DNA of 13,677 nucleotides, taken from IMG/VR virus record IMGVR_UViG_2703718850_000012, positions 1 to 13,677 of that record; one strand, 5' to 3'. The position numbers were made by a program. Source of the DNA: a virus. Lineage: Duplodnaviria; Heunggongvirae; Uroviricota; Caudoviricetes. Positions 6,001 to 9,000 of this stretch are shown piece by piece. Each line of letters starts with the position of its first letter. The first letter of the stretch is position 1.

Positions 6001-9000
6001 TAATAGCGTGGAGACTGCGCATAAGATGCCAGCGTCGCACGTAATGCCCCCGGCCCGAATGCCAGCCCCCTGACGGCGATATCCTGCATCAGGTCGTCGA
6101 ATATCCCCACCTTCAGCGGTTTTGGCGCTTCCCGGCTGAATAAGTCAGGCCACATCTCAGTAAGGCGGTTAACGCGTCTGCGGTTTTTGCGCTGGCGTTT
6201 GGTCATATGCCGCCACGGTGTCGCCCCTGTGGGCTTCTGCTGTGCGTTCTGATTGCCGGGTATCACTTTATGCGCCGATGTGGTTTTATCCTGCTGCTGT
6301 ATCGCCTGCGTCGTTTTCTGCAGCGTGCCGTAAATGCCTTTCGGTTTTCGGTTAATGGTCAGCTTTGTCATGCTTTCCCCTGTAATAACTCTGTTCGCTG
6401 TTGTGAATTAAAACGGTATGTTGTCCTCGTACGGATCATCATTACCCGCCTGTTGTTTTGCCCTGTTCAGCGCGTCAGTAGCCTGGCCCTGTTGACCTTT
6501 TTTGCCGCCCGGTCGCGCCGTTCGCGCACTGATTACGCTGTCTGCGATAACCTGCCAGCCCTGCCGCGTTTCGCCGTTCTGGCCTGTCCACTGGCTTACC
6601 TGCATGTTACCCGCCACGCTCACCAGTTCGCCTTTGTGGTGTCTGGCCAGTGCGTCGGCCTGTCTGCCAAACGCCAGGACGGATAACCACATCGTCGCCG
6701 TTCCGTCATCGGCCTGGCTGCACGGCAGGGGAACCGCCATACTCGCCATCGCCATTTGTGTCCCTTTGCTGGTGGTCTTTAACTGCGGGTCAGCCACCAG
6801 CCGCCCGTAAGCCGCTATCTGTGCTGTCATGCTGTCTGCTCTCCGGTTTTAATGTTGATGGTTGTCACCTGTTCCGATTCGGCAATCTCCCGTTCTGTCA
6901 GCGTGGCAAAGTTTGCTGCCGCCGTTGCCATGAATGCGCTTATCAGTTCGGGGTGTGCTTTCGCGTATCCTTCCCCCGTGTTGCGGTCGATGATTTTTAT
7001 CGCCACTCTCAGCCAGTGCTCTGTAAGGTCAATGGCGCGGTAGTGTGGTTGTTTGCGGTTTGACTTCATAGTTCAGATCTCGATTTTTCGTATATATATA
7101 TACAAAACACGTCGTCCCAGTTGTCCCGGTTGTCCCACTTAATGTTAACTTGTTGATTTTATTAAAACACACTCCGCAAAGTGGGACGACATTTACCGAT
7201 TTTGGGACGACATGAGGGGTTTTGCGTTGTCCCACCCTTCGGCACGGTAAAAAATACGTGTCGTGTCGTCCCAAAATGCCGCAATGTTGTCCCAAAATGC
7301 CTGAATGTTGTCCCGCTGTTGTCCCACTTTTTGCAAGTGAAATCTATAAAATTCAATATGTTACGCTTGCTTATTGCTTTCTGGGACGACTGGGACAACA
7401 TATTGTTACCGCCTACACGCGAGATTAATCATTTTCAGCATCGTAGTCCTGCGTCAGCAAAAGGCCATACACTCTTAGCCGCGCCCCTTTCAGGTGTTTT
7501 AGCCGTGGTGTCCTGATTTGCCATCCTCGCCCGCTGGCTGGTTTTCTCAGCATTCCGGCTTCATGAAGGGTTTTTGCTACGGCATCCTTGTTAAATCCCT
7601 TCGCCACATGTGAGCTAAACGGCTCCGGCAGCACGTAAAACAAAACAGGCTCGTCATAACGCCCGTCGCTTTCCCTGTAGCCGTACAGTTCTGAAATCGG
7701 CAGGCTGGCAGGGTCATAATTGACAGGGGCGAACCTGCTCAGGCCATAGGCCGCAAGAAACGCCTCAGCCTGTTCAATAATCTGCCTGTGTTCCCTGTTG
7801 CCCGTGCCGAACTCCTTCACCCAGGCATTAAAATTATGCTGAATGGCATCGCGGCATTCCTGCTCATCCCAGCCAGTCACATGACCGGAAAGCACAAGTG
7901 CGGCCTCCAGTATGGCGAAACGCTCACCCACGCGGTGGACCTGCTCGCCGTAGCTCTCCGGTATCAGGTTGCGCCACCGTTCACGGCATTCCCTTACTGT
8001 ATCCTTTGCCTCCTGCTGGTGGTCTGCCAGCCATTTAACCCACTCACGCCCCGCCGCCCCGTGATTTGCTGTCCAGGCATCCTTTAACGCGTCTGCGTGC
8101 GCCTTTCCGGTGCTGTATTCGTGAAATTGTGTGGCTTTTTCCATTGGCACGTTAAGCAGGCGGACAAGCTGCCCCGCCTTGACTTTTATCCCCTCCGTTT
8201 TGAGGAATGTCTCAACGTCCATTTCTCCGGTACTGATTGCCACCGTTCGCCAGTGTTTTATCTCCCTGTTGCCGCCGTCCTTCGCCCCCTGCAATTTACC
8301 GGAACCGTTAAACAGCGTATAAGCCGATGTGGACACCTCCCGCGCGTTTCCGGCCTGGCCTATTTCATCCAGTGGTAACAGTCCGTCGTTGTGTGCCTCT
8401 GCCTCGTTGGCGATACCTAACGCCGTTCCGTACCAGGTCAGCCGTTGCGCGTCCGGCTCTCCCCATAAACTTGATGCTATGTTCTGTGTGGTGGTTTTCC
8501 CTGCCGATGACTGTTCGAAAAGATGTACCCCGAAGCCGTCAGCGCCCACCAGCCCGATTAATGGTGCGGATAACGATACCGCCACTCCCAGCATCATGGA
8601 CGGATTACCACCAGCCAGTCGCGCCACACTGTCGCGCCAGCCCTCCGCCGTTCCTGTCACGGAATAACCATTAACGGCAGCCGTTTTTCCGGTAAACAGG
8701 ACTGGCTTTTCGCAATCACCAATGACCGAACCATCCGGCATGATGTACGCGCCAAAATGCCAGCCCGTTGTTGTGCTTAACTGCCATTCCTCATGGCTTC
8801 CGCTTAACTGCATCCAGTCAGCCAGGACAGCCCTGTATTTACCGTTGGTTGTCACGTTCAAACCGTGGTCTTTCAGCAACCGCCAGCCGTCACGGTCGCC
8901 AATGCCACCACACGGGATCGCCATTGTGATGACTTCATGATTTGCTAATTTTTTCCAGCGCATCACGCGGTAATGCTCTTTGCCGATTGTTCCCGTTCCC

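Follow-up and report, generated by a model that had tools for sequence, protein, structure and literature searches.

A probable iteron-type replication origin matched to the C-terminal domain of a DUF927 helicase-initiator in a predicted Gram-negative phage-inducible chromosomal island

The IMG/VR virus record IMGVR_UViG_2703718850_000012 is 13,677 bp in length and was analyzed in its entirety; this whole stretch is referred to below as the window. Its gene content marks the window as a phage-inducible chromosomal island (PICI) of the Gram-negative type, and nucleotides 7084–7399 are very probably its vegetative replication origin, in which 9-bp iterons would be bound by the C-terminal helix-turn-helix (HTH)/wing domain of Rep, a predicted self-loading helicase encoded by the adjacent gene. 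An earlier sequence-only reading of this DNA had proposed an iteron-type satellite origin that is bound through the C-terminal domain of the neighboring protein. This proposal is now favored by several lines of evidence, including the layout of the repeats, their covariation with the Rep C-terminal domain, purifying selection on the iterons, the homology of Rep to the SaPIbov1-Rep/Cch family, and the published architecture of related origins.

The iteron array downstream of rep

An exact motif search identified 11 matches to GTYGTCCCA in the window, 10 of which lie inside 7111–7399. The chance expectation is 0.22 matches per window, and none of 200 dinucleotide-preserving shuffles reached 11. 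Allowing one mismatch added GTTGTCCCG at 7120 and 7307, for a total of 12 GTYGTCCCR sites within 7111–7399, eight in forward and four in reverse orientation. Twelve copies of GTYGTCCCA had been listed previously, and the number and orientations stand, with the correction that 2 of the 12 sites end in G instead of A. The lone exact copy outside the origin (GTCGTCCCA, 2642–2650, minus strand) falls within a pyocin gene and, at an expectation of 0.22 per window, is most simply regarded as a chance occurrence.

The sites are organized in two modules. Module 1 begins with three abutting forward iterons at 9-bp spacing (7111, 7120 and 7129; 7111–7137), the exact tandem spacing that had been noticed from the sequence, followed by an AT-rich spacer (7138–7181, 25–27% GC) and two reverse iterons at 21-bp spacing (7182–7190 and 7203–7211). 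A single forward iteron (7226–7234) is located 23 bp past this reverse pair. Module 2 consists of four forward iterons at 7265, 7286, 7307 and 7318 (7265–7326; spacing 21, 21 and 11 bp), a second AT-rich spacer (7327–7381, 25–27% GC), and two rep-proximal reverse iterons at 9-bp spacing (7382–7390 and 7391–7399). The 21-bp tandem units of the sequence-only reading were recovered at 7264–7314 by Tandem Repeats Finder (TGTYGTCCCAAAATGCC...; period 21, 2.4 copies, 90% matches) and contain phased A/T tracts (TTT-iteron-AAAA, and iteron followed by AAAATGCC).

The array is located directly 3' of rep, with 25 bp separating the rep stop codon from the nearest iteron. No DnaA box was present anywhere in the window, Rfam and tRNA scans gave no match, and a literature search with the iteron strings returned unrelated primer sequences only. 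Three open reading frames (ORFs) that cross the repeats (7162–7401, 7181–7516 and 7222–7428) exist in the mechanical ORF list, and their earlier dismissal as spurious is reasonable; the RefSeq annotation of seven related E. coli genomes places no coding sequence in the equivalent gap.

A conserved layout in related islands

The array was compared among about 95 loci from more than 10 enterobacterial genera (Escherichia, Klebsiella, Cedecea, Pantoea, Rahnella, Yersinia, Serratia, Citrobacter, Pectobacterium and others), with 16 loci drawn from one-genome-per-species contigs and 80 from IMG/VR. Iteron words were found by de novo k-mer counting downstream of each rep stop codon. One dominant 7–8-mer was found per locus, usually in 10–12 copies, and these words define seven 9-mer classes. 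Read in the orientation of the window, the 320 bp after the DUF927 gene contain three forward iterons (spacing 9 and 9 bp), an AT-rich gap, two reverse iterons (21 bp), an interval of 22–24 bp, one forward iteron, a variable interval, four forward iterons (21, 21 and 11 bp), a second AT-rich gap, and two reverse iterons (9 bp).

In a census that allowed up to one mismatch, the exact 12-site pattern was found in 38 of 95 loci, about 25 more were one site short, and a further ~27 had a form consisting of module 2 alone (four forward iterons, gap, two reverse iterons). The inclusion of these latter loci identifies module 2 as the universal core of the layout and module 1 as an optional second unit. 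The rep-proximal reverse pair of module 2 occurs in essentially all loci, its 21/21/11 spacing is kept across all word classes, and the distance from the last iteron to the rep stop codon is 21–29 bp in all but two loci. About two thirds of loci keep the forward set of module 1, with either three or two sites. The single forward iteron lies 22–24 bp from the reverse pair in most of them and 17–169 bp from module 2.

Loci with the rep-proximal module only (three or four forward iterons, AT-rich gap, two or three reverse iterons) are L034–L058, L065, L066, L072, L073 and L083 from IMG/VR, together with L003, L010, L111 and L113. Among them is the closed circular 12.1-kb PICI "plasmid" NZ_CP148430, suggesting that six sites suffice. 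In two closed circular records labeled "plasmid" (12.1 and 16 kb), the whole sequence is a PICI in which the DUF927 Rep with its TGAACCAAC iterons is the only replicon; this provides circumstantial support for episomal replication.

Covariation of the iterons with the Rep C-terminal domain

Each of the seven word classes has its own variant of the C-terminal ~45 residues of Rep, in one-to-one correspondence. The word of the window, TGGGACRAC in this notation, occurs with the variant GWQIRTPRLKHLKGARLRVYGLLL; TGGGAYAAGT occurs with NWQIRTPRLKHLNNARPWTYVLLF, TAACCCGCA with RRYKKKALGKIGGKQHVFYVLMF, TAACCCAC with GRYKKKALRKMGGKQHVFYVLMF, TGAACCAAC with GRGYQ[RQ]KSPRIDGRQINVYV, TGAACCACG with GQRFQQKSPR..GRQ.NVYVLQ, and TGAACCGR with GGHTRKTLRVGDKQQRFYVLMY.

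Natural recombinants narrowed the region that travels with the word. The island of E. coli 1EC213 (L001) carries orf80 and the TA tract as in the window up to 7109 and then the word TGCGGGTTA, whose copies match the iterons of the window in position and orientation. It is highly similar to the window at 9090–7771 and 7087–6548 and not at 7770–7110, and its DUF927 protein is ~97% identical to the window Rep over residues ~155–595 and divergent at both ends. Its orf80 and ssb genes are 95–98% identical to those of the window despite the different word. In L034, identity to the window is 90–100% through the DUF4222 gene and Rep codons 1 to ~597; past codon ~597, across the C-terminal domain, origin and orf80, it is only ~45%, and the word is different. 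L045 has the window's word and a coding region for the C-terminal domain that is 92–95% identical, but its Rep has diverged in the N-terminus and core, and its orf80 is unrelated. Likewise, the word GTTGGTTCA was found both with short N-termini and with Zn-ribbon/Toprim N-termini. Because these recombinants exclude the N-terminus, the core, DUF4222 and orf80, only the C-terminal domain (~aa 597–710, encoded at 7428–7769 on the minus strand) travels with the word. As judged from these alignments, the breakpoints at ~7770 and ~7110 bracket a cassette of C-terminal domain and origin.

Substitution patterns within a single word class are also informative. In seven E. coli islands of the window's class (93.6–99% identity), 1 of 108 iteron columns is variable compared with 33 of 248 other intergenic columns (Fisher p = 5e-5), a bias that identifies the iterons as targets of purifying selection. 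On comparative grounds, the C-terminal domain of Rep appears to set origin specificity, and it would do so by binding the iterons directly.

The 21–29 bp that separate the rep stop codon from the nearest iteron (7400–7424 in the window) hold a semi-conserved motif in several word classes, with the form CCTACACGCGAGA in the window's class and CTCACATGTG in others.

AT-rich segments and the TA box

Three segments of the region have a GC content of 25–27% (7060–7109, 7130–7179 and 7320–7379). Their least stable 40-mers rank at the 99.7th percentile of the window in the outer TA segment, the 96.6th in the gap of module 1, and the 98.5th in the gap of module 2. The alternating TA tract that had been described next to the array was found at 7091–7103, directly adjoining the first iteron, within a conserved box, TTTTTCGTATATATATATACAAAAC (7084–7108), that ends 2 bp from this iteron and is the least stable segment of the region. 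Every word class and genus has the box (TTTTTcGTATATAtAaACAAAAC) at a distance of 2–3 bp from module 1, irrespective of the downstream gene, and it is kept also where a convergent terminator adjoins it rather than orf80. Its retention without an outward-reading downstream gene assigns the box to the origin and not to an orf80 promoter, and it is a candidate unwinding element or host-factor site.

Both inner gaps are flanked by convergent iterons and are AT-rich in every word class, without conservation of their sequence. The gap of module 2 is conserved in length; counted between the start of the last forward iteron and that of the first reverse one, it is 51–75 bp and mostly 52–64 bp across loci. 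In the window, its spacer at 7327–7381 would be the site of melting.

The Rep initiator

The rep gene (7425–9557, minus strand) encodes a 710-aa helicase-initiator of the SaPIbov1-Rep/SCCmec-Cch family (SaPI, Staphylococcus aureus pathogenicity island; SCC, staphylococcal cassette chromosome). DUF927 is the sole Pfam domain of the protein (E 1.2e-45), a Walker A GKT is located at residues 353–355, and 1,798 DUF927 homologues were collected at E ≤ 1e-10. In phmmer searches of PDB sequences, Rep matched the "pathogenicity island protein" 8tch (E 1e-14) and SCCmec Cch 5dgk (E 7e-4), and it matched the Cch1 model of NCBIfam below the curated cut-off. A full-length AlphaFold2 model was poor overall (mean predicted local distance difference test score, pLDDT, 58.8) and confident only at residues 1–130 and ~150–335; a Foldseek search with this model ranked 5dgk first (E 9e-9). 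Cch itself carries DUF927 and is related to SaPIbov1 Rep (PMC7581432). By this homology, Rep is a relative of the staphylococcal self-loading helicase-initiators, and the protein is best named a Rep helicase-initiator.

The sequence-only reading had placed the repeats directly downstream of a primase gene. The location is correct, since the repeats begin 25 bp past the stop codon, while the primase assignment is not borne out: no catalytic primase domain, as expected of a primase-helicase (Pri-Rep fusion), was detected in the 710-aa protein. Residues 1–160 had no Pfam match even at E ≤ 10, a profile of the N-terminus showed no alignment to the Toprim segments of relatives (8% probability in hhalign) and no match to any PDB sequence, and Foldseek matches of Rep to DnaG were non-significant (E 0.2–0.8). 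A degenerate Toprim at the N-terminus was sought by Pfam, hhalign and PDB profile searches, all negative, and residues 1–150 likewise gave no Zn-ribbon match. Longer relatives of 824–949 aa carry Toprim_3 ahead of the same DUF927 core in five of five cases, and also Zn_Ribbon_Prim in three of the five, which explains the "DNA primase" label of PHROG 1139; Rep matches this family only from profile position 254 onward.

The first ~130–145 residues of Rep (MKxAPNxK...IIFAGxDAW...; within residues 1–150, window 9108–9557) form a domain that is common to PICI initiators at 36–50% identity. It is joined to three unrelated helicase cores, namely DUF927 in the window, D5-like in EcCICFT073 and EcCIRM13514, and RepA-like in EcCI042, and copies were located at 5242–5660 of L021, 6950–7325 of L022 and 6231–6680 of L023. 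AlphaFold predicted a confident alpha/beta fold (pLDDT 84–90), and no Pfam, Toprim or PDB sequence match was found for the domain. Its presence on three helicase cores may point to an undescribed adaptor that would recruit host or helper priming or replisome functions.

The C-terminal domain (~aa 597–710) is the putative specificity determinant and probably contains the HTH/wing. Pfam HTH_56 ("Cch helix turn helix domain") was matched by 6 of 11 C-terminal domains of the family (best E 2.9e-4), and a profile search of the PDB with this domain gave spurious weak matches only.

A model for initiation

The region has the features of a PICI/SaPI-type origin, with a position directly 3' of rep and short iterons that flank AT-rich DNA in opposite orientations. 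Each of the two modules has forward iterons, an AT-rich gap of ~45–55 bp and an inverted iteron pair, and the 9, 11 and 21 bp spacings would place the sites on one face of the helix. Rep, by homology an MCM-like hexameric helicase of the DUF927 type (SaPIbov1-Rep/Cch family) that would load itself, is predicted to bind the GTYGTCCCR iterons sequence-specifically through its C-terminal HTH/wing domain. By analogy with SaPI Reps, oligomers of the protein would gather on the converging iterons, open the AT-rich gap independently of ATP and then load themselves as helicase. Because Rep has no recognizable primase domain, priming would have to come from elsewhere, either from host DnaG or from the helper phage.

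Several observations weigh against this assignment. The iterons adjoin the coding region of the C-terminal domain, and linkage could account for part of the association between them; the concerted swap of all 12 sites in an unchanged layout argues against linkage alone and is predicted by a change in protein-DNA specificity. The C-terminal domain of the window's own Rep has no HTH_56 match in Pfam, and AlphaFold2 modeling of this domain by itself reached a pLDDT of 45.5 and was not used, so that its DNA-binding fold is deduced from homologues and from a helix-helix-hairpin sequence pattern. Without a recognizable primase domain in Rep, the initiation chemistry is incomplete. No experimental work was found for this element or for any PICI origin of the DUF927 type, and the origin that has been tested, that of EcCICFT073, belongs to a D5-type helicase that has only the N-terminal ~140 aa in common with the window Rep.

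Alternative roles for the repeats

The strongest alternative, itself improbable, treats the region as chiefly a promoter/regulatory segment, with the repeats serving as operators of a transcription factor (Rep, AlpA, PerC or another island regulator) that controls the orf80-ssb-proQ-perC operon or read-through from rep. The repeats are positioned between two co-oriented genes, the TA-rich box is found 15 bp upstream of the orf80 start codon, and iterons of plasmid systems often double as autoregulatory operators. Set against this, a consensus scan found no sigma-70-like promoter on either strand of 6950–7600; the word tracks the Rep C-terminal domain and not any regulator, in a comparison that did not include alpA and perC; and orf80 and ssb retain 95–98% identity across a change of word. 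Loci in which a convergent terminator follows rather than an outward gene still keep module 1 and the TA box, and two AT-rich gaps flanked by convergent sites are origin-like and not operator-like. Given the same promoter scan and the conservation of the TA tract as part of the origin, the earlier suggestion that the array overlaps the promoter region of the ssb operon is not supported. No terminator was found between rep and orf80, the single terminator of the scan being at chance level and inside rep, and read-through transcription into orf80-ssb is as likely as transcription from a promoter of their own. Alongside the origin function favored here, Rep binding could have a secondary regulatory role.

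A second possibility, which appears very remote, is that the repeats are terminase-binding sites (cosB- or pac-like) for packaging of the island. The island encodes a Nu1-like small terminase, and lambda-type cosB regions contain repeated R sites. A different part of the window has the hallmarks of such a site: 4381–4620 on the minus strand is ~74% identical to the cos/terminase-binding/integration host factor (IHF) region of phage 21 (M81255), and a cosN-like sequence, GGGCGGTGACTT, is located at 4625–4636, just upstream of terS. The segment 4381–4636 is, by this similarity, the probable cos site of the island and suggests a phage-21-type helper; a lambdoid cos identity was accordingly not assigned to 7090–7400. 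Furthermore, the iteron region had no match in 50,697 phage records, and the same grammar is found in islands whose packaging modules differ widely, among them capsid-forming PICI (cf-PICI), P27-type terS and no terS.

Non-functional repeats, left by slippage or as a decayed relic in an intergenic spacer, are equally improbable and are excluded by the conservation tests: short tandem arrays can arise by slippage, and L003, L010 and L111 have lost half of the array, yet the sites are of mixed orientation with exact spacings conserved across genera, the seven words are replaced in concert at all positions, and substitutions are significantly fewer in iterons than in spacers.

Comparison with known origins

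Origins of the Staphylococcus aureus islands contain 6–12 iterons directly downstream of rep, with an AT-rich center and at least two oppositely pointing iterons on each side (PMC9371898). The C-terminal winged-helix domain of SaPI Rep recognizes the iterons, binding and melting are ATP-free, and the protein probably loads as two hexamers (PMC9371898). The origins for SaPIbov1, SaPI1 and SaPI5 Rep were described by Ubeda et al. (2007), as summarized in PMC9371898 and PMC7581432. The window resembles these systems in the position of its origin just 3' of rep, the placement of iterons on both sides of an AT-rich center, and the apparent setting of specificity by the C-terminal domain, and its Rep is homologous in both sequence and fold to the DUF927 branch (8tch; Cch, 5dgk). 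It differs in its Gram-negative host, in words of 9 bp compared with 5–6 bp in SaPIs, and in having two tandem modules (6 + 6 sites) and a conserved TA box. Unlike SaPIs, the island also has no separate or fused primase gene, and its Rep contains an extra ~145-aa N-terminal domain that is common to other enterobacterial PICI initiators. Cch, whose structure has been solved, is a homologue of the window Rep with DUF927 and a C-terminal HTH_56; it comes from SCC elements, which are not satellites of phages. The related Cch2 binds direct repeats that lie 3' of the cch2 gene, of which only three were found, and no iteron origin has been defined for Cch itself (PMC7581432).

Among E. coli PICIs, origins are organized alike, and a pri-rep-ori fragment of EcCICFT073 maintains a plasmid in a Rep-dependent manner (Fillol-Salom et al., 2018; PMC6092414, Fig. 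2). The window belongs to the same class and has the same synteny as EcCICFT073 (int-alpA-...-DUF4222-rep-ori-orf-ssb-perC), iteron sets flank an AT-rich region in both, and the N-terminal ~140 aa of the two Rep proteins are ~50% identical. In contrast, the EcCICFT073 helicase is of the D5_N/DUF5906/Pox_D5 type (superfamily 3, SF3) and that of the window is DUF927, while the EcCICFT073 word is CTGTCTACC and its sites are arranged differently. DUF927 was found in none of seven published E. coli PICIs (CFT073, 042, RM13514, ATCC 25922, IHE3034, 11128 and 11368; EcCIED1a was outside this comparison), all of which have D5-like or RepA-like helicases. The origin of the D5-type island EcCIRM13514 (L023, 8060–8290) carries ~10 copies of TGTTCACC/GGTGAACA words. 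We take this octamer to be the type I iteron of the ori and crr regions of satellite phage P4, hinting at a specificity common to P4 alpha-like and PICI initiators.

The P4 alpha protein is a multidomain helicase-initiator whose C-terminal domain binds short repeated octamers, and these are present in two iteron clusters, ori and crr. The window thus resembles P4 as a satellite element with a helicase-initiator, two iteron clusters and, in all likelihood, C-terminal DNA binding. In distinction from Rep of the window, P4 alpha possesses a real primase domain and a D5-type helicase of a different family, and ori and crr are kilobases apart, whereas the modules of the window are adjacent. P4 is also discussed in PMC6092414.

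Iteron origins of plasmids such as pSC101, R6K, F, P1 and RK2 likewise place initiator sites beside an AT-rich unwinding region, adjoin rep, and rely on an iteron/Rep pair to set specificity and incompatibility. Their iterons are direct repeats of 17–22 bp, at which a Rep_3-type winged-helix dimer/monomer initiator recruits DnaA and DnaB. The 9-bp words of the window are found in either orientation and are presumably bound by the helicase itself; these features, together with a DUF927 helicase initiator and a window free of DnaA boxes, set it apart from the Rep_3 (pSC101/R6K) type.

The origin type is therefore already known, as SaPI and E. coli PICI origins of the same design have been described and tested for other Rep types. 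The fixed grammar with its seven pairs of word and C-terminal domain, and a primase-less Rep with a PICI-wide N-terminal domain, may be the only parts that go beyond published work. A tentative generalization, which we regard as possible rather than probable, is that DUF927-type origins follow a fixed 6 + 6 site grammar, perhaps with each site taken by one winged-helix domain in a pair of Rep hexamers, in which evolution rewrites only the 9-bp word and ~45 C-terminal residues, giving rise to at least seven mutually orthogonal pairs that move as a cassette of ~660 bp (7110–7770), together with a primase-less Rep that carries an N-terminal adaptor. The analysis pins the candidate origin and specificity determinant of a widespread enterobacterial PICI lineage. 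It should help in annotating such islands, for which prophage, plasmid or "DNA primase" is a frequent wrong label, and in predicting the replication compatibility of co-resident satellites. Seven natural pairs of Rep C-terminal domain and iteron on one invariant scaffold also offer a system for studying how the wing and HTH read DNA and could be used to build orthogonal replicons.

The island and its other genes

The assignment of the window as a Gram-negative PICI is based on the presence of int and alpA, a unidirectional gene order, a rep-ori unit, cos/terS, a size within ~8–15 kb, and the absence of a full morphogenesis/lysis set. The same gene order has been described for Gram-negative PICIs (Fillol-Salom et al., 2018; PMC6092414). 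One E. coli island whose origin region is 99% identical to that of the window is located at tRNA-Pro/yejM, a published PICI attachment site (PMC6092414, Table S1), and the IMG/VR contig L033 encodes a Rep that is 100% identical to that of the window.

On the minus strand, the island encodes a tyrosine integrase (12436–13677), an AlpA-type regulator (11707–11910), an Icd-like region (within 10299–11699) and a DUF4222 protein (9554–9853) ahead of rep. Past the origin follow orf80, an 80-aa ORF (6827–7069; phrog_1231), and ssb (6408–6830), which encodes a single-strand DNA-binding protein (Pfam SSB, E 8.5e-16) that is a probable accessory of the replication module; the order rep-ori-orf-ssb is syntenic in EcCICFT073, EcCI042 and others. 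Genes for ProQ/FinO and then PerC come after ssb on the same strand, and the Nu1-like small terminase gene terS is located at 3816–4400, also on the minus strand. The 466-aa mechanical ORF at 10299–11699 is probably over-called; its match to an Icd-like/repressor family is confined to the last ~90 aa, and annotators of a near-identical island placed a 576-bp Icd-like gene there instead, with a YlcI/YnfO gene on the opposite strand.

The cargo of the island lies on the plus strand at 1125–3554 and comprises a PAAR/S-type pyocin DNase/immunity cluster, with proteins of 163 aa (PAAR), 563 aa (PAAR/S-type pyocin/colicin-pyocin DNase toxin) and 82 aa (colicin/pyocin immunity). The island of E. coli CFIAFB20180511, whose origin is 99% identical, carries other cargo at that end, including a Panacea-domain protein.

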